In this document: piece after piece, positions 1,053-24,594 of the stretch
Numbering within the stretch: position 1 is the stretch's first letter
Layout: the number at the start of each line of letters is the position of its first letter
Assembly: GCA_964644035.1 (NCBI GenBank)
Contig: CAZXUH010000001.1
Location: forward strand, 527,720 to 568,144
DNA length: 40,425 bases
Direction: 5' to 3'
DNA from: an uncultured Candidatus Saccharibacteria bacterium
GTDB lineage: Bacteria > Patescibacteriota > Minisyncoccia > Phycocordibacterales > DAORIS01
Notes under the pieces: generated by a model
Seen by the model: only the letters and a program-made list of their open reading frames with translations
Database searches by the model: none
Told to the model about the DNA's origin: nothing
Position numbers and translations under genes: made by a program

Positions 1053-2426
1053 CTAAAAATCTAGATCATAGCTACTACCAAGTTCTGGATATACTGCCTT
1101 AACATTTAAATAATCCCTTAGACGCTGTGATAGAAACATTGCCGACTTTGGCTCCCCCATTGCCACAAACACCATATCAAGGGTCTTCGAAGATTTATCT
1201 ACAAAATCTATAAGATTGTCTGAATCTTTGTGGGAAGAATATCCATCGATCGATTCTATACTTGCTCGTATCTGTATTTTTTCATCACGAATTGTTACTT
1301 CTCGAGCTCCATCTTGTATCTGCCTGCCCAATGTACCAAGAGACTGGTAGCCGACAAACATCACGATCGCCTCGGGATCAGGAAGATACTGTATTTCATG
1401 ATAAATGATCCTGCCACCAGCCGACATACCCGATCCAGCCATAATAATCTTGGGATTTGGTACGCCAAATATCTTTCCGGATTCTTCGCGACGAGCAGTC
1501 AGTTTGAGTTTGTGAAAATCAAAGATATCATCACCTCCTCTAATACGGTCCTGGATCTCAGGTTTAAATTCATTGGTATGGTTTCTATAAATATCTGTTA
1601 CTTTTATACCTAGTGGCGAATCGATAAACACTGGCAAGGGTTGTATTTCTTTACTCTCTACTAGATCGTTGATTTCAAATAAAATATCCTGCGTGCGCTC
1701 GAGAGAAAAGACAGGAATGACCAGTGTTTTCTTCTCAGCAATCGTTCTTTTTATAATTTGTTCCAGGTGGGCGCGACGAGCTTCTTTTGACTCATGATTG
1801 CGATCTCCATACACCGATTCCATAATCATATAGTTCGCATCAGAAACTTCTTCTGTATCTCTCAAAAAGAGCGAGGGTGAATTGCCAAGATCACCTGTAA
1901 ATACAAGCTTGCGACCATTGCGGGTCAATTCGATCATAGCTGACCCAAGAATATGCCCTGCATCCTTGAAATAGACTGACACATCGGCGCCTATGGTTTG
2001 TGACTCATGATATGGAATAGTCTTCCAAAGAGAAATGGCTTTTTGTATATCCTTTCTTTCATACATAGGCAGTGTACCCTTTTGCATGGCATCGTGTTCG
2101 ACAAGTTGCACCTGATCATCAAGCATTACTCGCGCAAGATCGAGTGTAGCTGGTGTGGAATAAATAACACCTTCAAAACCCTCTTTCACGAGCTTCCCTA
2201 TTCGACCTATATGATCGGCGTGAGCGTGAGTAATAAACAAAATATCGATCGATGCAGGATCATATGCAAATGGTGCTGTATTGAAACGATCTGCACCCTG
2301 CACGCCCTGCAAAAGCCCACAATCGACAAGAATACGCAGATTTGTCGGCGCGGACTCTATCTCGCATAGAAAATTGGCCCCCGTGACCGCGCCGACACCT
2401 CCGCTAAAGGTCAGTTTTGATTTCAT
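1053..2426 (-). CDS. MBL-fold metallo-hydrolase, beta-CASP type (RNase J/CPSF-like RNA nuclease)
   Basis: HAHADH (HxHxDH) motif, a later DAGH motif and a C-terminal beta-CASP-like region. Start placed at MKSKLTFSGG (2426) because it forms an ATGA start/stop overlap with the upstream ORF. The longest ORF starts at 2450. Confidence 0.75.
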   Translation of the reverse strand: MKSKLTFSGGVGAVTGANFLCEIESAPTNLRILVDCGLLQGVQGADRFNTAPFAYDPASIDILFITHAHADHIGRIGKLVKEGFEGVIYSTPATLDLARVMLDDQVQLVEHDAMQKGTLPMYERKDIQKAISLWKTIPYHESQTIGADVSVYFKDAGHILGSAMIELTRNGRKLVFTGDLGNSPSLFLRDTEEVSDANYMIMESVYGDRNHESKEARRAHLEQIIKRTIAEKKTLVIPVFSLERTQDILFEINDLVESKEIQPLPVFIDSPLGIKVTDIYRNHTNEFKPEIQDRIRGGDDIFDFHKLKLTARREESGKIFGVPNPKIIMAGSGMSAGGRIIYHEIQYLPDPEAIVMFVGYQSLGTLGRQIQDGAREVTIRDEKIQIRASIESIDGYSSHKDSDNLIDFVDKSSKTLDMVFVAMGEPKSAMFLSQRLRDYLNVKAVYPELGSSYDLDF

Positions 2427-2869
2427 ACCTGTTTTCTCATAATAACCCAATACCCCGCCATGGCCCCTGTCATATCTTCAGCCACGTCGGCAATAGTATC
2501 GAGCCAATAGCCTTCTGAAGTGAGACCGGCAGTACCTGTAATCACTTCAAAATATTCCCAGCCAATACCAATTACGAGGGCTAAAGCTATAATACATAAA
2601 AATGGATTCTGAATCTTATCGAGAAAAGGAACATAGTGCCTAAATACAAAATAAAAATAGGCTATGACCATGCCTGCAAGAAAATGTAGAACATTGTCGA
2701 ACCACCACGTATATGAATACAGATACAGTTTCAGAGCGAGTGCAAATAGTACGCCGAGTAAGCACATAGTCAGAATCAGAAGTTTTGCGGATCGTTCGGC
2801 GAGCGGCATGGGTCTATTATAACAATAAAACATCCACTTCGTGAGAAGCGGATGTTTAGGATTACTCAA
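2423..2869 (-). CDS. Hypothetical polytopic membrane protein (about 4 TM helices)
   Basis: 148-aa ORF with several hydrophobic helices. It is translationally coupled (ATGA) to the downstream nuclease gene. Start uncertain (M1, M13 or M21). Confidence 0.5.
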   Translation of the reverse strand: MSNPKHPLLTKWMFYCYNRPMPLAERSAKLLILTMCLLGVLFALALKLYLYSYTWWFDNVLHFLAGMVIAYFYFVFRHYVPFLDKIQNPFLCIIALALVIGIGWEYFEVITGTAGLTSEGYWLDTIADVAEDMTGAMAGYWVIMRKQV

Positions 2870-3088
2870 TGTGTTACCCTAGAATGTGCCTAGGTGGGTC
2901 GCCGCAACGATAGTGCTTAGAAATGCTGCTTGCGCTGCTTCTCACTACTCTATCGGAATTTGAAGCCTCCCAAAATATTGGTTAGCCAGGATAACACAAT
3001 AAGTAACCCTTTTTCATTATAGTTCCTCATGCTCAAACCGATACTTTTTATGACTAGAAAAATGTGTTGTAGTAATAATCCTCAGAGA

Positions 3089-3694
3089 CTACTCAAGTAG
3101 GCCATCTAAATTGACATCATAGAGTATTTCTTCCTGCACCAGACGGTAATCCACGATTTCATGTTCCTTGAACCAGTGATGTATTTCATCTTGCGCCTCA
3201 TCTACCGAACCAGAAGCATGGACAAGATTCCTGACAGACCGGCCATCGCTATCGGTCATTTGATATGAATCGAGCACGAAGTCACCTCTTATAGTACCGA
3301 CATCTGAAGTGAGCGGTTCGGTTCCACCGGTAAGTTTTCTGACCACCGCAACAGCATGAGCACCTTCCCACACCATAGCTATGATCGGTCCTGCAGTCAT
3401 ATATTTTTTCAATCTACCAAGAAGAATTTCTGTAATCTTGAGCGGATCAGATTCTGGAGGTTCTATTCCCTTGTCTTTATATCCTTTAATTGTTTTTTCA
3501 CCAGTCTTTTGTCTCCACTCTGGATCAAGGGTGTAATGTTGCTCTATCATTTCACCACTCGATACAAACATCTTCATGGCGACAAGTTTGAGACCGACAC
3601 GCTCATAGCGCTTTATTACTTCGCCAATGAGACTACGTTGTATTGCATCTGGTTTGATAATGACTAGTGTTCGTTCGTCTTTGGGATGGTTCAT
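3089..3694 (-). CDS. ndk: Nucleoside diphosphate kinase, long form
   Basis: ERTLVIIKPDAIQR...VGLKLVAMKM and the NLVHASGS active-site His region. Its 201 aa exceed the usual length of about 140-150 aa because of an internal insert and a C-terminal tail. Confidence 0.85.
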   Translation of the reverse strand: MNHPKDERTLVIIKPDAIQRSLIGEVIKRYERVGLKLVAMKMFVSSGEMIEQHYTLDPEWRQKTGEKTIKGYKDKGIEPPESDPLKITEILLGRLKKYMTAGPIIAMVWEGAHAVAVVRKLTGGTEPLTSDVGTIRGDFVLDSYQMTDSDGRSVRNLVHASGSVDEAQDEIHHWFKEHEIVDYRLVQEEILYDVNLDGLLE

Positions 3695-3698
3695 GTAG

Positions 3699-6485
3699 TT
3701 AAGTATTTAATGTTTGTTCTGGCTTTCTATATTTTTTATGAATTTCGGCCTCTATTCCCTCTCGTGGTGAACCGTACGTCAGATATGAAAGTTCTTTGAG
3801 CTTTTCCAAGAACGCTGGATCAGATTTGGTAGGAGGAAGTGTTTGAATATTAAAAGGTTTTGCTGGCTGACCATTGATCAGAAGTTTTAGATACGCATTG
3901 CGATTGTCTATATTCATAAGATCACTAGCTGTAAACACTGGTTCAAATTGTTTTTCTAGAAATTCAGCATCGGTTGCTCCGACTCTGAAAGCAGCAAATG
4001 AACCAACGTTACCAAAGACTGCATCTCGGGTCTTTTCATCAAGTTGGGCAATAAACTGATGCGCAAGGTTGAGAGATAATCGATATTTTCGAGCTTCAGA
4101 CAGGATTGTGGCAATAGACGGGGTCGTTACATTTTGGAATTCATCTATATAGAGATAGAAATCAGCGATAGGCTTACCTACAACATCTACTCTCGACAAT
4201 GCGGCCATCAGTATTTTGCCCACCAAAATAAGACCAATCAGATAAGAATTGATATCACCTAGACGACCCTTGGCCAAATTGACCAAAAGTATTTTCTTAT
4301 TATCCATGACGTCACGGAAATTGAACGAAGACTTCTCCTGCCCAATGATAGGACGCATGATATCGTTGGAAAGAAAGACGTCGAATTTTGAAGTAATGTA
4401 CGGCACCATATTTGCAAGCGACGCTTCTCCCCCAGCTTTCTCAGCTACTTCTTTCCAAAACTGCACCACAATAGGGTTGCGACATCTCGAAAGTTTGAGT
4501 TCCCTAAACTTTTTATCAGCAAGCACCCTCGATACCTCAAGCAGTGTGTTTCCTGTATCAGGATCTTCAATGACGAGCATCGTGGCGTTTCGGAAATACT
4601 GTTCGAACATTGGACCACCTGCTACTTTCATATCAAACAGTTTTTCAAAAATAGAAAGCATTTCATTGACCACAAATGTTTTCTGTTCTGGATGATCTCT
4701 ATCGTATTCGAGCATATTGAGCGCCATAGGCCGAGGAGTGTAGCTCGGATCAAAATAAATAACGTCATTGATACGTTCCTTGGGCACGGCAGCCAGAATA
4801 TCTTGAATATCAATGCCGTGTGGATCGATAAAGCAGATTCCATCGCCATTTTGCACGTCTTGAATAGCCATATTCTTGATCAAGGTCGACTTACCAGTAC
4901 CTGTCTGACCAATCGTATAGAAATGCCTCATCCTGTCCTCGCGAGTCATTTTTATAGTCGTTTCTACGCCTCTATAACTATTTATTCCTAGCGTGACACC
5001 GTCGTTTGCTAGTGCAAGAGGTGCAGGAGCACTACCAGTCTTCGTGGTGCGCAATTGTGGTGCCTGAGCACGAGCGGCAAAATGAGCTGTGGTTGCAAGT
5101 TCTCTAAGTGAAAGCGGAATACGATCACCAAAAGAAAAATTCCTGAATATAAAATCTTTCTCTAAAGCTTTGAGCTTATTTTTCTCTACCCTGTTGAATT
5201 TGAAGGTATTGCCAGAAGTATTTTCAAATTGATTGAAGGCAGATTCTATATCACTCAAAATATGCTCTGCTCTTGGGCGACTTTCTGCTGAAGCTACGAT
5301 CCTAATATTGGTCAGAACGATCTGCGATGCAATTTTGAGCTTGATCTGGTCAACTTTCTCTTGATCACCTCTTCCCAAATCCTTCTTATCATCATCTTTT
5401 TTCTTTTCATCGCTATGAAAGATCATTTCCTTGAGATCTTTGGTAAAGCTTCCAAAAAGCGTGTCTTTGATATCTATAGCATGCTTAAAAGGCACTCCTT
5501 TTTCTATTTGTTTGAGTGCATCGGTATAATGCTTATTGTATTTGTCGCCTGCCGGCTGAATGACAAACTGAAGCGCTGCCCCTTCTCCATCCTTTTGAAT
5601 CTTTGAAAAGGTATTGAGAATAATACTAGCTGGATCGTGATCGAATTGCTCGTACGTTTTTATTGGAAAGATAGGATTCCTTGCTGAAGAAGCATATGAG
5701 GCTACTGAAACACCATCGGGATTGAAGATATTGTAATCATTTGGAGTTTCATTTATTTTTGCTTCTGGATAAATAGCTAGAAGCTGCTTTTCAAGCAAGT
5801 GGGCCTTGTACGATGGCACGGAAATATAAAATACCGTCTCCAAGCTGCTATGCGTATTGGCCAATTCGAACGAGAAGTAGTTATCTTTGTCCCTCTTATC
5901 TGCTACCGAAAGCATACCCGCAAAAAACTGTTCCATACCTGCCAAGAGCTCCTTGAGAGGCTTTTCTCTGACCTCACCAGCTGTGGTGGTCTTTGCCGAC
6001 GGCGTAGACGACGGTAAAAGCACTTCAAAAAGCGTCCTGTCGAGGGCACGTTCGTATGACTTTTCTATTTTTGCTCCAGTATTGGTAACTCCATGAAAAT
6101 ATTTGACGAGAAATCTATGGAAATCATCTTCAACATGAGGATTGTTGAGCTTTTCTACTACTTCAAGAGCATTGCGTAGACCTCTCTCTTCAAAAACAGC
6201 TACCACTTCATTTAGCATTCGCTCAGGTGCATGAGAATCAATGCCAAATGCAGTGTTTTCTACTTCGTTGTGAAGCATTCTATGACCCTTTTCTAGTGTC
6301 TGATCTATGGGTTGATTGGAATACCTCTGAACTTCTTGCTTAATGAGTTGAGCTGGTATTACCTCTTCCTTCTTCTTGATCAATTCCTGCTCCTTTTTGG
6401 TTATCTGTTCCTTAAGAAAGGCAATTTCTTGCTCTGGAGTTTGAAAATAGTTTCCTTGAAGCTTACCTTCGTTCATGGAAATCAT
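3699..6485 (-). CDS. VirD4/TraD/TrwB-like (type IV coupling protein family) P-loop ATPase with a large N-terminal region of unknown function
   Basis: 928 aa. The C-terminal part has Walker A GQTGTGKST, Walker B-like FYLYIDEFQN and SLNLAHQF, as in T4CP/TraD-type ATPases. The N-terminal half has no family I can name and no obvious TM helix. Confidence 0.65.
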   Translation of the reverse strand: MISMNEGKLQGNYFQTPEQEIAFLKEQITKKEQELIKKKEEVIPAQLIKQEVQRYSNQPIDQTLEKGHRMLHNEVENTAFGIDSHAPERMLNEVVAVFEERGLRNALEVVEKLNNPHVEDDFHRFLVKYFHGVTNTGAKIEKSYERALDRTLFEVLLPSSTPSAKTTTAGEVREKPLKELLAGMEQFFAGMLSVADKRDKDNYFSFELANTHSSLETVFYISVPSYKAHLLEKQLLAIYPEAKINETPNDYNIFNPDGVSVASYASSARNPIFPIKTYEQFDHDPASIILNTFSKIQKDGEGAALQFVIQPAGDKYNKHYTDALKQIEKGVPFKHAIDIKDTLFGSFTKDLKEMIFHSDEKKKDDDKKDLGRGDQEKVDQIKLKIASQIVLTNIRIVASAESRPRAEHILSDIESAFNQFENTSGNTFKFNRVEKNKLKALEKDFIFRNFSFGDRIPLSLRELATTAHFAARAQAPQLRTTKTGSAPAPLALANDGVTLGINSYRGVETTIKMTREDRMRHFYTIGQTGTGKSTLIKNMAIQDVQNGDGICFIDPHGIDIQDILAAVPKERINDVIYFDPSYTPRPMALNMLEYDRDHPEQKTFVVNEMLSIFEKLFDMKVAGGPMFEQYFRNATMLVIEDPDTGNTLLEVSRVLADKKFRELKLSRCRNPIVVQFWKEVAEKAGGEASLANMVPYITSKFDVFLSNDIMRPIIGQEKSSFNFRDVMDNKKILLVNLAKGRLGDINSYLIGLILVGKILMAALSRVDVVGKPIADFYLYIDEFQNVTTPSIATILSEARKYRLSLNLAHQFIAQLDEKTRDAVFGNVGSFAAFRVGATDAEFLEKQFEPVFTASDLMNIDNRNAYLKLLINGQPAKPFNIQTLPPTKSDPAFLEKLKELSYLTYGSPREGIEAEIHKKYRKPEQTLNT

Positions 6486-9533: not shown

Positions 9534-9986
9534 TTATTTATTTGCTGTCTCTATTGTACCACCCGCCTTTTCAATTTTTGCTTTTGCTTCCTTTGAGAAT
9601 GCGACGCCAGAAAATGTAAGTTTCTTTGACAATTCGCCATTACCGAGAATTTTTACTGAAATATCTCTTGATTTAAATGACTTAACAAGACCTTTTGCTG
9701 AAAGAGTTGCTGGAGAAATAGCATCGCCGGCATTGAAAACTTCATTGAGTGTGCCAACATTGACGACAAAAGCATTTTCCTGAATCGAAGTAAGAGCACT
9801 CTTACCACGACCTCGTAGCTTTGGAAGTTTCTTGATGATATCTCGCATTTCAGGACGGATCTTGCGACCAGAACGTGCTTTCTGACCTTTCATACCGCGA
9901 CCCGATGTCTTACCGCGCTTACCGCCACGGCCGACTTGCTGGCTTTTTTTATTTTTTGTTCTTGGAATAAGATTGTGTATCTGCAT
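9534..9986 (-). CDS. rplO: 50S ribosomal protein L15
   Basis: GRGGKRGKTSGRGMKGQKARSG motif. It follows rpsE directly with no rpmD in between. Confidence 0.95.
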   Translation of the reverse strand: MQIHNLIPRTKNKKSQQVGRGGKRGKTSGRGMKGQKARSGRKIRPEMRDIIKKLPKLRGRGKSALTSIQENAFVVNVGTLNEVFNAGDAISPATLSAKGLVKSFKSRDISVKILGNGELSKKLTFSGVAFSKEAKAKIEKAGGTIETANK

Positions 9987-9997
9987 GGTAGTTGAGC

Positions 9998-10612
9998 TTA
10001 TTTCTTTGAGGGATTAAGCGACTTGAGAGCCTTGAGAGCTGCCTGAGCAACGTTGAGCTGGTTCTTACTTGGAGAAACGATCTTTGCCATGACGTCCTTG
10101 ATACCTGCAAGTTCAAGTATACTTCGAGCTGCGCTGCCTGCTACGACTCCTCGTCCTGGAGCTGGCTTGATAATGATGCGTCCGCTTGAGTATTTTGCAT
10201 ACACTTCATGAGGAATAGAATTTGTCTTGGTGATAGGAATGCGAATCATGTGCTTCTTAGCATCACGAAGAGCTTTGTCGATAGCAAGAGAAGTGTCCCC
10301 TGCCTTTCCTAGACCTACACCGACTCGTCCCTTTTTGTCTCCAGCTACAAGAGCAACTGAGAAACTAAATCGTCGTCCACCGGCTACGACACGGGTTACG
10401 CGGCGAAGAGCAATGATCTTCTGTTCAAATTCTGCGCGAGGACGTTCTGCGCGAGCAGGACGATCACCACGATCACGTCGCTTTGCACCCTGACCCTGTG
10501 CACCACCTCGGCCATATGAAGGTCGGCGTGCATCGGTAGGTGCGGCAAGAGGAGCTGCTGTAGGAGCAGGCGCTGCGGCTGGTGTTGGCTGTGTGTTTGT
10601 TTCGTTATCCAT
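9998..10612 (-). CDS. rpsE: 30S ribosomal protein S5 with an Ala/Pro/Arg-rich N-terminal extension
   Basis: S5 core KIIALRRVTRVVAGGRRFSFSVALVAGD... Start set at MDNETN (ATG 10612), which avoids overlap with the rplR stop at 10617-10619. The longest ORF starts at 10654. Confidence 0.9.
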   Translation of the reverse strand: MDNETNTQPTPAAAPAPTAAPLAAPTDARRPSYGRGGAQGQGAKRRDRGDRPARAERPRAEFEQKIIALRRVTRVVAGGRRFSFSVALVAGDKKGRVGVGLGKAGDTSLAIDKALRDAKKHMIRIPITKTNSIPHEVYAKYSSGRIIIKPAPGRGVVAGSAARSILELAGIKDVMAKIVSPSKNQLNVAQAALKALKSLNPSKK

Positions 10613-10616
10613 ATAT

Positions 10617-10961
10617 TTAGAATTTGAGTCCGCCTTCTCGTGCAGCGTCAGCAAGTGCTTTTATCTTTCCTGTATAAATAAATCCCCCTCGATCAAATAC
10701 GACTTTGCTGATCTTGAGAGCTTTTGCCTTCTCTGCAATTCGTGTGCCGACTTTTTTTGCACCTTCAAGCTTTGTACCATCTTTTTCATTTGAAGATTCG
10801 TATGCAAGAGTAACACCCTTGTCATCATTGAGAAGTTGCGCGTAAATGTACTGGTTAGACTTGTAGACAGAAAGACGAGGCATTTCTTCTGTACCCTTGA
10901 CCTTGGCGCGAATGCGCTTGTGACGTCTGTCTCTCTTGAGTGTTTTAATATTAGTATTCAT
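10617..10961 (-). CDS. rplR: 50S ribosomal protein L18
   Basis: 114 aa: RRHKRIRAKVKGT...RLSVYKSNQYIYAQL...FDRGGFIYTGKIKALADAAREGGLKF. Confidence 0.95.
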   Translation of the reverse strand: MNTNIKTLKRDRRHKRIRAKVKGTEEMPRLSVYKSNQYIYAQLLNDDKGVTLAYESSNEKDGTKLEGAKKVGTRIAEKAKALKISKVVFDRGGFIYTGKIKALADAAREGGLKF

Positions 10962-15285: not shown

Positions 15286-15630
15286 TTATTTCTTTGCGTC
15301 TGTCGTAGCAACCTTGGCTGATTGTGCTGCTGCAATTTCTGCTTCTTTCTTTTTCTGTTCGAGCTCTTTCTGCATCTTACCGCCGTGCTTATTGAACTTG
15401 CGCGTGAGCGAAAATTCACCCAATCTGTGACCCACCATTTCCTCGCTTACGAGCACTTCGATATGATCCTTACCATTGTGCACGCCAAACTTAAAACCCA
15501 CCATTTCAGGAGAGATCTGGCTGCGTCGTGCCCACGTCTTAATCACCTCGGAAGTACCGGGTTTCTTTCCTTCAATCTTCTGAAGGAGACGTTCATCGAC
15601 ATATGGACCTTTTTTAAGTGATCGTGACAT
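15286..15630 (-). CDS. rpsS: 30S ribosomal protein S19 with a Lys/Ala-rich C-terminal tail
   Basis: Canonical N-terminus [13 protein letters not shown] at ATG 15630. The ORF-track start at 15651 is a GTG seven codons upstream. Confidence 0.93.
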
Positions 15631-15670
15631 ACAGTAAATAAAAGAGCTCACAGAGAGCTTGGTTTCAAAT

Positions 15671-15697
15671 ATTATATGAAGTGCCCTCTAAAGTCAA
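15671..15697 (-). promoter_or_regulatory. Candidate sigma70-type promoter for rpsS and the downstream spc genes
   Basis: On the minus strand: TTGACT (15697-15692), 15 nt, TATAAT (15676-15671), about 40 nt upstream of the rpsS ATG. The 15-nt spacer is suboptimal. Confidence 0.35.
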
Positions 15698-15746
15698 ATA
15701 ATATCTGCCTATAGGCTTCTTAGGGCTTTTTTGATGTTTGGTACCA

Positions 15747-15774
15747 TTGACATAGTGTAAAAATATGATAAAAT
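15747..15774 (+). promoter_or_regulatory. Near-consensus extended -10 promoter for the inserted 321-aa gene
   Basis: TTGACA (15747-15752), 16 nt, TAAAAT (15769-15774), with TG at 15766-15767 (TGnTAAAAT). Downstream lie a 7-bp stem-loop GAAAGGG-gtgtt-CCCTTTC (15784-15802) and AAGGAGG (15836-15842) 6 nt before ATG 15849. Confidence 0.55.
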
Positions 15775-15848
15775 GTATAGGTAGAAAGGGGTGTTCCCTT
15801 TCACACTAGTTCATTGTCGTTTCTCACGAATCTATAAGGAGGCTCTAT

Positions 15849-16814
15849 ATGAGCAACCGATTCCGAAGGATCATTACCCATGTTCGACCCCATTTGGACG
15901 AGCTTTTGGCCATCAAACTGCTCTGGCAGTACGGTGGAAAAAAGTATCCTGGTATCCAGGATGCCAGCATCGAGTACTGCGGTACCGGTGAGGATCCTGA
16001 AAAGAAGTCCTGGCAACAACACTTCAATGAAGGAACCATTTTGGTCGGCGTTGGTGGCGGTCCGTTCGACGAACACCCTGCCATAACCGGCGAAGCGCGC
16101 AAGGACAAGGAGTCAGCGTGTTCTCTCGTCGCCAAAGACCTTGGTCTCGAGAAGCACCCGCTCTGGAAACAATTGGTTGACTGGGTAACCGAGTCCGATC
16201 AGACCGGAGTTCATCCTCTGCACGTTGCCAACCTCATGAAGGACGCATACCGGGTCGAGGATGACTACGCGGTTGCTATGGACCTCGGCTTCGCTATGAT
16301 CGACAGGAAGGCACGGGTTCAACAGCTTTTTTTGGAGGCACAAAAATACCTCCGAAATCTGGACGGCACCGACAGACACCACAAAATCGTCGGTCGATCA
16401 GATCGAGATCTCGATCTCGTCGTCGACGACTCTGACAACTTCCAGATTGGCGCTGCAGCTCGATCACTCAAGATTGCAATCGTCCTTCAGCGCCAACCCT
16501 CCGGCAACGTCCAGGTGTTCTGCAATTCAGATCGCTACGATTTCAAGATGACCTACGTCATCACCAAAATCAGAGAGGCAGAAATTGTCGCTCAGGGCGG
16601 CAGCAAGAATTCCGCCAGGGCAATTCCTTTTGAAGAATTGTCTCGGGCTGGGAAAATTCCCCAGGTTCCAAACTGGTTTTACCAGATTCCTGGCGAAAAT
16701 CTGCTGAACGGTAGTGAATCCACTCCGGACACAAAACCCACCAAAATCCCCTTCGACAAACTCATCAAGATCGTTCACACCAACCTCTTTGCTGAGTCGG
16801 CTGTTGCGGCTTAG
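15849..16814 (+). CDS. Orphan protein with MYG1/UPF0160-like (DHH-superfamily metal-dependent hydrolase) motifs, inserted antisense in the rplB|rpsS junction
   Basis: 321-aa ORF with a strong SD, its own promoter and its own terminator. Motifs in MYG1 order: ITHVRPHLDELLAIKLL (compare THNGTFHCDEALACALL), VGVGGGPFDEH (compare DVGG.YD...DHH), IAIVLQRQPSGNVQVFCN (compare FVIYTDQAGQWRIQCV) and IPQVPNWFYQIPGENLLNG (compare IPGCIFVHASGFIGG). Family assignment is by eye only. Confidence 0.8.
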   Translation: MSNRFRRIITHVRPHLDELLAIKLLWQYGGKKYPGIQDASIEYCGTGEDPEKKSWQQHFNEGTILVGVGGGPFDEHPAITGEARKDKESACSLVAKDLGLEKHPLWKQLVDWVTESDQTGVHPLHVANLMKDAYRVEDDYAVAMDLGFAMIDRKARVQQLFLEAQKYLRNLDGTDRHHKIVGRSDRDLDLVVDDSDNFQIGAAARSLKIAIVLQRQPSGNVQVFCNSDRYDFKMTYVITKIREAEIVAQGGSKNSARAIPFEELSRAGKIPQVPNWFYQIPGENLLNGSESTPDTKPTKIPFDKLIKIVHTNLFAESAVAA

Positions 16815-16831
16815 TCAGATTGCGAGAAACG

Positions 16832-16861
16832 AAAAACCCCACACATTATGTGGGGTTTTTC
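16832..16861. terminator. Bidirectional rho-independent terminator shared by the inserted gene (+) and rplB (-)
   Basis: aaaaa-CCCCACA-catta-TGTGGGG-ttttt lies between the stop at 16814 (+) and the stop at 16873 (-). It reads as hairpin plus U-run on both strands. Confidence 0.75.
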
Positions 16862-16872
16862 TATACCTTGAT

Positions 16873-21314: not shown

Positions 21315-21872
21315 TTAGGATCCGTAGGCAATCAATGTCTTTAGTATATCCGACTGATTGAGGCATTTTTGAGACGTCGTCTTGAAATATCCCTTATCGA
21401 GCAAAGCCACATATATACCCGTTCTGAGTATTGGATTGACCCCTGCATCTGACAACATAGTATTAAGTTCATTAGATGTACAAATTTTTCCGTCTTTTCC
21501 ATAGGTAGTGACTACATGATTGGCAACTGCAGCAAAATCAATCTCCCCTTTTGAGTTTATGAGTTTGTTTATTCTGAGTATTTTTTGCAGATTTCTGACA
21601 GTATCTTGTATTTCTTGATCACCAATTATCTTAAATGAAGTGCACGGGATTATTTTTGTCGACGTGCTTTGTATATAAATAGCGCAATTGGTTTCTGTCT
21701 TTACTACATATATACCATTGTGCTGATTGCTGTTGAGCGCAGCAATAGCAGAAGCTTCTGATGCAGCATTGTGCGTAAGTGCATCTGCATCGATCTTAGA
21801 GAGAGTAAAAGTCGTAGCGACAATTCCAACAATTGCAATAATCGTATAAGCCAGTAACGGATTGATTTTCAT
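21315..21872 (-). CDS. Hypothetical membrane-anchored or secreted protein between fusA and tuf
   Basis: 185-aa ORF with an N-terminal hydrophobic helix (LLAYTIIAIVGIVATTF) and 5 Cys in the ectodomain. It is AT-rich like the host. I recognise no family. Confidence 0.5.
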   Translation of the reverse strand: MKINPLLAYTIIAIVGIVATTFTLSKIDADALTHNAASEASAIAALNSNQHNGIYVVKTETNCAIYIQSTSTKIIPCTSFKIIGDQEIQDTVRNLQKILRINKLINSKGEIDFAAVANHVVTTYGKDGKICTSNELNTMLSDAGVNPILRTGIYVALLDKGYFKTTSQKCLNQSDILKTLIAYGS

Positions 21873-24177: not shown

Positions 24178-24519
24178 TCAAGAAACTATCCTTATTTTCG
24201 CATTCGCATTGTTTTGTCGAGCAGCATCTAGATATTCTCTTGTAGTTCTATCAGAAGCTATTTTTTCGGATTCGCAGATATCAATCAGTTTTTCGATTGC
24301 ATCAATATCATCTATATCCTGTGCATGAGATGATGCATATTCAAGATAATCCATTATTTGCCTCAAAACCTGTCGCTTGCGTTCTGTATCGTCTTCCGGA
24401 GTAAGTACAGTGAGTTTCTCAATATAATATTCTATCTGTGATGCAATTGAATTGCCTTCATTATTGCTTTCTATGTTTTCATTCTCCCCTCCCGCTGTAA
24501 GTGTATCTTGATTTTCCAT
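24178..24519 (-). CDS. Hypothetical small acidic protein between rpsG and fusA
   Basis: Start set at MENQDTL (ATG 24519), because the longer ORF (24570) would run through the rpsG terminator hairpin. The 113-aa product is Glu/Asp-rich and probably helical. No family recognised. Confidence 0.45.
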   Translation of the reverse strand: MENQDTLTAGGENENIESNNEGNSIASQIEYYIEKLTVLTPEDDTERKRQVLRQIMDYLEYASSHAQDIDDIDAIEKLIDICESEKIASDRTTREYLDAARQNNANAKIRIVS

Positions 24520-24535
24520 AATAAGTTTATTATAG

Positions 24536-24562
24536 CAAAACTGCCGAGAGTGTCTCGGCAGT
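24536..24562 (-). terminator. Rho-independent terminator downstream of rpsG
   Basis: On the minus strand: CTGCCGAGA-cac-TCTCGGCAG followed by TTTTGC. A TATAAT follows 2 nt after that. Confidence 0.65.
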
Positions 24563-24594
24563 TTGTGCATCTAGATACAATGAATTGTATCGAA

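Follow-up and report, generated by a model that had tools for sequence, protein, structure and literature searches.

A putative gene-exchange slot at the rplB–rpsS junction of a Patescibacteria clade and its resident gene for a candidate MYG1-like DHH-fold phosphoesterase

Anatomy of the rplB–rpsS junction

This analysis concerns gene X, a predicted gene that lies between rplB and rpsS in a 40,425-nucleotide stretch (the window) of contig CAZXUH010000001.1 from an uncultured Candidatus Saccharibacteria bacterium. The adjacency of rplB and rpsS is among the most conserved features of prokaryotic gene order. In the window, rplB (ribosomal protein L2; 16873–17727, minus strand), recognized as an open reading frame (ORF) and by homologue comparison, is the last gene of the upstream transcription unit. 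The rpsS gene (ribosomal protein S19; 15286–15630, minus strand), recognized from its ORF and translation and from a Pfam Ribosomal_S19 match on the identical contig L004, is the first gene of the downstream unit. The two are separated by 1,242 nt with one plus-strand ORF, that of gene X (15849–16814 in the ORF list), which encodes 321 amino acids and runs opposite to both neighbors. An earlier note on this DNA had described a 1.24-kb gap holding a complete opposite-strand unit, and all elements of the unit were found where the note had placed them.

The unit starts with a putative promoter of the extended −10 type, TTGACA-16-TGATAAAAT (15747–15774, plus strand), which in a promoter scan matched 11 of the 12 hexamer positions, had the TG of the extended −10 element and is as close to consensus as had been claimed. 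Promoter-like sequences also precede X in two relatives, L006 and L074. The predicted 5′ untranslated region (5′UTR) contains a hairpin with a 7-bp stem, GAAAGGG-GTGTT-CCCTTTC (15784–15802, plus strand, read from the sequence), the 3′ half of which is kept in a third relative, L154. The 5′ stem-loop of the earlier note therefore exists as this local hairpin, but the 5′UTR as a whole folds no better than shuffled sequences (z = −0.6). The hairpin is followed by the motif CTAGTTCATTGT (15806–15817, plus strand), found by DNA alignment of the window with L154, and by the Shine-Dalgarno (SD) sequence AAGGAGG (15836–15842, plus strand), 6 nt upstream of the X ATG. The anti-SD duplex predicted for X (−11.1 kcal/mol) ranks first among 53 window genes, for which the mean is −2.4. 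An SD core match of at least 5 nt was present in only five of the 53 genes and the host is therefore largely without SD use, which bears out the contrast that the earlier note had drawn from about 15 start sites.

Downstream of X lies a predicted bidirectional intrinsic terminator, GAAAAACCCCACA-cauua-TGTGGGGTTTTTC (16831–16861, both strands), identified by folding and a repeat scan. It has a perfect 13-bp stem (−22 kcal/mol, z = −5.2), is equally strong on the minus strand, lies 11 nt past the rplB stop codon and is common to the convergent X and rplB genes. The SD, the 321-codon ORF and the strong hairpin terminator of the earlier note are thus all present. On the other side of the gap, the promoter scan revealed a candidate rpsS promoter, TTGACT-17-TAATAT (15697 to 15669, minus strand), and a scan for terminator-like structures detected a leader hairpin, AGCTC-TCTGTG-AGCT, followed by a U-run (15659 to 15645, minus strand) directly 5′ of the rpsS start. 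The X and rpsS promoters lie back to back, ∼50 bp apart. The rpsS leader (15631–15700, minus strand) has no Rfam match and may represent a new type of leader or attenuator for ribosomal-protein genes.

The rpsS arrangement extends beyond the window. In all seven relatives with rpsS available (L006, L009, L074, L154, L158 and L159 among them), as in the window, TTGAC[AT]-17-TAnnAT, a hairpin and a U-run occur directly before the rpsS start; the hairpin follows the consensus [AG]GCTC..G[AG]GCT, with a T-A to T-G difference at one position of the stem. An intrinsic terminator is found right after rplB in six of eight relatives. The L159 site contains no gene, and both the rplB terminator and the rpsS promoter and leader are present there. 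Because a terminator closes rplB and a separate promoter and leader precede rpsS, even at L159, we infer that the rplB–rpsS junction is an inter-operon boundary in this clade. With such a boundary, X would not lie within an operon at all, which resolves the apparent paradox, and it would make no antisense RNA against its neighbors.

Neither integrase or transposase genes nor a transfer RNA (tRNA) target were found in the junction, and repeats flanking X were no more frequent than expected by chance, in agreement with the earlier note. A 12-nt inverted repeat (15814/16824) was considered as an insertion scar and discarded, being at chance level and absent from L006. Signs of an integron cassette are also missing from the junction, where the sole strong inverted repeat is the terminator and no integrase is encoded. 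Rfam searches of the 5′UTR, the terminator region and the spacer of L159 gave sub-threshold matches only. The abrupt change of composition at X (see below) is all that would point to a chimeric assembly, in which an unrelated higher-GC fragment had been joined between rplB and rpsS. Two independent Logan assemblies, SRR14271335 and SRR14271332, align to the window with 0 mismatches over 20,966 and 14,858 bases, respectively, and the same architecture occurs in contigs from at least six other samples. Since both assemblies are identical to the window over 15–21 kb, the rplB-X-rpsS arrangement is not an assembly artefact, and the probability of a chimera is negligible.

Junction content in relatives

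Relatives were sampled through RplB homologues and through loci of the X family, giving ten states of the junction. The window itself (RplB 100%) has antisense X. L157 (RplB 92%) contains a 175-residue ORF with its own SD and then an X homologue on the operon strand, and L154 (90%) an antisense family member of 321 residues that is 26% identical to X. L156 (88%) is without X and contains an NYN-domain gene and three more genes; L158 (84%) contains three same-strand genes that each have a separate promoter and terminator. The genes of the L158 module have a G+C content at third codon positions (GC3) of 0.38–0.51, compared with 0.21–0.25 for the host, and are weakly homologous to the L156 module (28–31% identity). 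L159 (81%) has a 442-nt spacer and no gene. In L006 (76%), antisense X is split into 221- and 102-residue pieces, and in L074 (71%) it follows a 109-residue ORF that has its own TTGACA promoter and AAGGAGG. Antisense X and a 162-residue ORF are present in L009, in which rplB is not on the contig, and likewise on the P0005 contig. Content that differs between the same conserved flanks is the hallmark of a genomic island or hot spot, and it is what these ten junction states display. The earlier note had seen X as fixed in the most conserved of operon junctions; the junction is instead a probable operon boundary, whose content has been found replaced, inverted, broken, exchanged for another module or empty.

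Relatedness among the X proteins does not follow that of the hosts. X of the window is 45–49% identical to X in L074, L009, P0005 and L006, which are the most distant hosts, but only 26% identical to X in L154, which is among the closest hosts and whose other ribosomal proteins are 84–91% identical. In a neighbor-joining tree of 40 members, all 100 bootstraps placed L154 X outside the clade formed by the X proteins of the window, L074, L009 and P0005. Because distant hosts share a closer X than the near host L154, the history of X at this site does not appear to be simply vertical; strict vertical descent of the junction gene is rejected for L154, not for the window lineage. The recurrence of the same X lineage in the same junction of hosts with 71–76% RplB identity argues that this lineage is not a recent, fixed insertion. 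The X copies of L006 and P0002 look broken.

DNA comparison of the window with L154 resolves this difference to a single ORF. The two sequences are nearly identical over the 5′ end of rpsS, the rpsS leader and the rpsS promoter. The X promoter is recognizably conserved (..TTGACA..AAAAAT[A/G]TGATAAAAT), and similarity continues through the 5′UTR up to CTAGTTCATTGT (15817), beyond which it is no better than random until it resumes at the terminator and rplB. Two DNA alignments delimit the segment that differs, comprising the SD and the ORF, to ∼15818–16830 (plus strand), with CTAGTTCATTGT as the apparent upstream edge of the swapped segment. The X start in L154 lies further upstream than in the ORF-finder listing; its product begins with MSNISVQVVTPKNTVTHVWIHMNPDIDE, which contains DHH motif I, and it has its own GGAG. 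The 5′UTR core TTGTTCATTGTC is also present in the 5′UTR of L006, and its continuation over the SD and the start is similar in the window and L006 (AAGGAGCCTCACATG versus AAGGAGGCTCTATATG).

Since the promoter and 5′UTR are common to L154, whose ORF is only 26% identical, we conclude from these alignments that they are probably part of the locus itself rather than of a mobile cassette. The alignments further lead us to conclude that the window X lineage is likely an old resident, and that in L154 the SD and ORF have likely been replaced by those of a very distant family member. This differs from the earlier proposal that the whole cassette was the inserted unit, because promoter and 5′UTR down to CTAGTTCATTGT appear as conserved locus DNA in L154. 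The earlier proposal of a recent acquisition from a higher-GC donor is likewise difficult to reconcile with the continuous 5′UTR-SD-start stretch common to the window and L006 and with the same X lineage in the junctions of L006 and L074, and also of L009 and P0005.

The mosaic also bears on the possibility that X is a vertically inherited housekeeping gene at an operon boundary, with gene-specific codon bias and ordinary loss of synteny. Such a gene would not be expected to have 26% identical members at the same site, within otherwise conserved DNA, in hosts whose ribosomal proteins are ∼90% identical, nor to be found in the opposite orientation or replaced by unrelated cargo in other close relatives. 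The points in favor of this possibility come from the family itself and are taken up below.

The companion cargo of the junction (L074 5499–5828; L009 2605–3093; L157 3809–4336; L156 4485–8338; L158 5967–8627) includes one recognized protein, that with the NYN domain, and several genes with their own TTGACA promoter, SD and terminator. GGAG-type SDs are found on several junction cargo genes (L006, L074, L010, L154 and L157). PADLOC gave 0 matches for X, L154 X and eight other inserted proteins, of which seven are from this junction and one is from rplE–rpsN of L006. The spacer of L159 (5853–6294) contains GC-rich sequence within a genome that is very AT-rich, and it folds better than shuffled sequences (z = −2.9); it may represent the remains of a gene or encode a small RNA. 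A second insertion point of the ribosomal cluster is rplE–rpsN in L006, where a PemK-type toxin gene, a 427-residue ORF and a DUF2283/DUF4258 pair lie between the two genes (1386–3611).

Two further ORFs interrupt ribosomal gene order in the window. One (21315–21872, minus strand, 185 residues, membrane-like, GC3 0.34) lies between tuf and fusA and the other (24178–24570, minus strand, 130 residues, GC3 0.28) between fusA and rpsG. Neither has a Pfam match, and both are on the operon strand with host-like GC3. Because of their positions at tuf/fusA and fusA/rpsG, the str operon is also interrupted in this genome. Directly 3′ of the ribosomal cluster, at its map-adk-secY end, is a gene for a 928-residue DUF8128/TraG-like protein (3699–6485, minus strand), which resembles type IV coupling proteins.

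Fold, family and composition of gene X

X gave no usable match in Pfam, NCBIfam, PADLOC or the sequences of the PDB. A structural model of X (AF2/AlphaFold, 11-sequence alignment) had a mean predicted local distance difference test score of 88.6 and a predicted template modeling (TM) score of 0.83. Its top matches in a Foldseek search of the PDB were 6mtz, RecJ (2zxr), the DHH domain of PF0399 (5yh1) and NrnA (5j21), with E values from 2e-4 to 7e-3; the C-terminal half matched the C-Ala (DHHA1-like) domain of alanyl-tRNA synthetase. In BFVD, the model matched phosphohydrolases of the DHH family from giant viruses and jumbo phages (E = 5e-6 to 1e-3, probability 0.99–1.0).

Probable remote homology to MYG1 was indicated by profile comparison. 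An hhalign alignment of 120 family members with 20 MYG1 proteins gave a probability of 82% and E = 1e-5 over 144 columns, all in the N-terminal domain, and paired TH..PHxDE with THNGTFHCDE, GVGGG.FDEH with VDVGGEYD..YDHH, and D117 with VDAxDNG. The family profile matched a single MYG1 sequence at E = 0.0023; the MYG1 query matched the 'MYG1 exonuclease' chain in the PDB. Like MYG1 (UPF0160, PF03690), X has a two-domain DHH/DHHA1-type fold of ∼320 residues, and the N-terminal motifs of the two proteins align in the profile comparison (H-x-D-E-A-x-A-x-x-LL, V-G-G-x-[FY]-D, D-[HE]-H and an acidic D in V-x-x-x-D-x-x-G). Unlike MYG1, X has DEH instead of DHH, misses the VDVGG aspartate and has L-N-G-S in place of the C-terminal GGH, the histidine of which sets RNA specificity; its C-terminal half shows no sequence alignment to MYG1.

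Eleven residues (H15, D17, D74, E75, H76, D117, R242, E245, W276, N287 and G288) vary little or not at all across the 120 members. The motif I and III positions of X read H15-L-D17 and D74-E75-H76, a similar but non-canonical metal-ligand set, and the L154 variant has a canonical motif I, N-P-D-I-D. In the C-terminal half, X has L-L-N-G-S where DHHA1 has GGGH, with N287 invariant and G288 nearly so. The DHH-DHHA1 enzymes of the NrnA/RecJ/GdpP type (PF01368 plus PF02272) are the best structural matches to X and share the N-P-D-x-D motif I with L154; X differs from them in its lack of a Pfam match, its deviating motifs III and IV and TM-scores of 0.2–0.3. PF01368 and PF02272 do not match X, and one of the 120 members matches DHH at E = 0.084; PF03690 matches none of the 120 at E ≤ 1. 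The Pfam model ChrB_C, which has matches in 19 of the 120 members, was tried as the family identity and is treated as a shared motif. The one match inspected (e.g., P0116 residues 86–126) scored 18.8 bits, below the threshold of 25 bits, and covered the GGG.FDEH stretch only; the best member reached E = 5.6e-7. The ChrB_C matches hint at a motif common to a chromate-resistance regulator domain.

On the basis of the model and the profile alignment, X is filed as a putative MYG1-like phosphoesterase with DHH/DHHA1 fold, representing a new family of the DHH superfamily. Because of the DEH triad, the missing VDVGG aspartate and the L-N-G-S for GGGH, it is not filed as a member of PF03690, PF01368 or PF02272. 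The conserved residues and the modeled fold suggest that X is probably an RNA or nucleotide phosphoesterase. MYG1 is a DHH-motif 3′–5′ RNA exonuclease that trims the 3′ ends of pre-rRNA and mitochondrial RNA, with rRNA precursors and mRNA 3′ ends as substrates (PMC6582341). By analogy with MYG1 and NrnA, X would most likely act as a 3′–5′ exonuclease or nanoRNase-type enzyme that hydrolyzes RNA ends or small nucleotides.

A word-indexed search identified 11 relatives of X, and their alignment was used for an exhaustive hidden Markov model search that yielded 1,756 cluster representatives (50% identity) at E ≤ 1e-3 and 702 at E ≤ 1e-30. The genome scan gave 63 loci and the metagenome scan 80 loci. 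The hosts are almost all metagenome-assembled genomes of Patescibacteria (Paceibacterota, Parcubacteria groups and bins labeled 'Saccharibacteria'), together with a few WOR-3. In the first 153 loci fetched, X adjoins ribosomal-protein genes in six: the two assemblies of the window itself, L006/L007 (one place in two assemblies), L009 and L074. The P0005 contig has the same ribosomal-junction arrangement as these loci. A Pfam scan of 148 immediately flanking ORFs (∼100 distinct loci) revealed no recurrent partner; MetH domains occurred in six flanking ORFs, in one X subgroup only. The only other ribosomal neighbor seen for the family is rpmG (L33) at L001–L003 (7684–9005), where a 35% identical member of host-like composition lies divergently beside it. 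Of the ribosome- or rRNA-linked function that the earlier note had suggested, a link to RNA is plausible through the probable remote homology to MYG1; a function tied to ribosomal genes is not supported by the neighborhoods.

The fold raises the question of a selfish or conflict gene, either a homing-type nuclease acting on rplB/rpsS DNA or an enzyme of defense or counter-defense. A nuclease-superfamily fold, the recurrence of deep family branches in both orientations at one site, the very divergent alleles between conserved flanks and variable cargo that includes an NYN RNase would all fit such a gene. We nevertheless regard it as very unlikely. X has no Pfam match to a homing-endonuclease domain (LAGLIDADG, GIY-YIG, HNH or similar), neither X nor the cargo has a PADLOC match, and nearly all other family loci fetched are away from ribosomal-protein genes. 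DHH enzymes are known as exonucleases or phosphodiesterases and not as site-specific endonucleases. Sequence relatives of X were found neither in IMG/VR (pattern scan) nor among INPHARED phages or PLSDB plasmids, and a phage or plasmid origin is rejected on the same ground.

The composition of X is foreign to the window, as the earlier note had estimated from hand counts. The ORF has a G+C content of 0.523 and a GC3 of 0.606, compared with a GC3 of 0.27–0.48 in the other credible ORFs of the window (0.453 in a 105-residue mechanical ORF that overlaps a tRNA gene), and C occupies 0.388 of its third positions versus 0.202. Its codon-usage distance is 1.54 versus 0.98 ± 0.20 for host genes (maximum 1.38), and 1-kb tetranucleotide windows over X rank 1, 3 and 4 of ∼158. 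The codon adaptation index (CAI) of X with ribosomal proteins as reference is 0.551, which is under that of every ribosomal gene (mean 0.746, minimum 0.639) and low in the range of other genes (mean 0.599); with non-ribosomal host genes as reference it is 0.649 versus 0.759 ± 0.025. The low value of 0.551 rules out translational optimization as the source of the high GC3, and the bias is therefore foreign-like rather than fitted to host-preferred codons. A local GC peak of 0.49 at 9900–10800 of the window lies over rpsE; the S5 gene has a G+C content of 0.51, and its mechanical ORF (TTG start) reaches upstream of the called gene.

These values invite the explanation that a complete promoter-to-terminator cassette was recently imported from a higher-GC donor that uses SDs and was then fixed, perhaps for a ribosome-linked function. 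The foreign GC3, codon usage and tetranucleotides and the uniquely strong SD agree with it, and, with the nearest known homologue (P0002) at 72% identity, a GC-richer member of the clade could have donated X fairly recently. Composition does not identify a single donor, however. Among 57 distinct family loci, each with at least four other ORFs of at least 200 residues, X exceeds its neighbors in GC3 by a mean of 0.089, is the higher in 79% and is the top-GC3 ORF in 46%, for an expected 16% and 9% for control genes. The excess (Wilcoxon p = 3.6e-7) is the same in AT-rich and GC-rich hosts and, since it is family-wide, a single higher-GC donor cannot account for it. Chronic exchange, GC-biased repair at a recombination-prone gene and gene-specific selection are candidate causes. 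Given also that the X lineage recurs at 45–49% identity in the same junction of distant hosts, that promoter and 5′UTR are common to L154 and L006, that the junction is variable and not fixed, and that the L006 and P0002 copies look broken, a recent import is an unlikely explanation.

The housekeeping alternative draws its support from the same family data: the family is large and widespread, catalytic-type residues are kept, mobility genes are not seen nearby, viral and plasmid homologues were not found, and the copies in L009 and L001 are host-like in GC3. Besides the L154 replacement and the inverted or unrelated content of other close relatives, the CAI of X below that of host genes weighs against it, since the bias is not translational optimization. 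We consider a purely vertical housekeeping gene unlikely.

Proposed exchange at the junction and its significance

We favor the following account, to which as a whole we assign a probability of about 0.55. In this Paceibacterota-type lineage of the Patescibacteria, the S10 ribosomal-protein operon would have been cut in two between rplB and rpsS, with rplB closed by an intrinsic terminator and rpsS served by a separate sigma-70-type promoter and a conserved leader with hairpin and U-run. The gap between them would be a permissive slot with its own outward-facing promoter and 5′UTR. X would be the old resident lineage of this slot, belonging to a large MYG1-like family of metal-dependent phosphoesterases with DHH/DHHA1 fold; it would be transcribed from the extended −10 promoter, translated via its strong SD and ended at the hairpin that would also terminate rplB. 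Incoming DNA from relatives may recombine via the conserved rplB/rpsS flanks or via the promoter, UTR and terminator of the slot, and ORFs would be replaced, inverted, exchanged for other cargo or lost as a result. The codon usage of X would then reflect its exchange history, or an accompanying GC-biasing process, and not one recent transfer. Of this account, the analysis shows the anatomy, the modeled fold, the remote homology and size of the family, the variable junction, the mosaic at ORF level and the split of the operon; transcription and termination, activity on RNA or nucleotides, recombination via flanks or frame sequences and the source of the GC3 excess are deduced.

Several points weigh against this account. 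Transcription of X, its SD-driven translation and its termination at the hairpin are predictions from sequence signals. The recombination mechanism is suggested by one well-resolved pair, the window and L154, and the host relationships are based on a few ribosomal proteins from metagenomic contigs. An old resident would be expected to reach host composition, but the GC3 of X stays at 0.60–0.65 in the window, L006 and L074, where host genes have 0.33–0.48, and simple vertical descent does not explain this persistence. For the protein, the Foldseek TM-scores are low (0.2–0.3), which we attribute to differences in domain orientation; the Pfam DHH, DHHA1 and UPF0160 models are not significant for X or the 120 members; and with DEH as the triad and NGS for GGGH, the chemistry may differ or be lost.

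The proposed slot has parallels in recombination hot spots between core genes. Replacement of a locus through homologous recombination in its flanks is known at O-antigen and capsule loci. Like these, the slot has conserved flanks and variable content in close relatives, deviant cargo and very divergent alleles, and a mobility gene is unnecessary. It differs from other hot spots in lying within the normally inviolate S10 operon, in its tiny size (0.4–3 kb) and in its own conserved promoter, 5′UTR and terminator, which would make exchange of a single ORF possible. The X unit also resembles the 'morons' of phages in that it is a self-contained unit of deviant composition, complete with a sigma-70 promoter and a terminator, and L158 contains three moron-like units in series. 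Unlike morons, X is located on a cellular chromosome and has no viral homologues, and its promoter appears to be part of the locus rather than of the mobile part.

A more far-reaching version of this idea, which we hold to be speculative and improbable, is that the gap works as an 'expression slot'. Its frame would be the conserved divergent promoters, the CTAGTTCATTGT 5′UTR motif and the bidirectional terminator, and single ORFs would be exchanged without an integrase at short conserved sequences of this frame. Exchange might even be promoted by the resident DHH-type nuclease itself, and the family-wide GC3 excess would be the footprint of chronic recombination through GC-biased repair. If true, this would be an integrase-free cassette-exchange system embedded in a ribosomal operon.

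Each component of the favored account is of a known kind: the enzyme belongs to the DHH superfamily, and hot spots of recombination are found between other core genes. Their combination, in a hot spot that is embedded in the S10 operon and supplies its own expression signals, is unusual. In our literature search, no paper was found on genes inserted between rplB and rpsS or into ribosomal operons of Patescibacteria, nor did we find a curated family that includes the X protein.

The split and its variable content indicate that, across a whole clade, one of the firmest adjacencies of prokaryotic genomes now marks the limit between two operons, at which genes are taken up, swapped and lost. The findings are relevant to the regulation of a divided S10 operon and to gene exchange in genome-reduced, episymbiotic Patescibacteria without recognizable mobile-element machinery. 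A higher-GC insert in a ribosomal block can also mislead composition-based tools, with consequences for binning and for phylogenies built on concatenated ribosomal proteins. The analysis further defines a large MYG1-like DHH family of ∼1,750 clusters that lacks a Pfam model and carries a family-wide anomaly of codon composition. Its members are candidates for the missing RNA-end or nanoRNA processing activities of candidate-phylum bacteria.

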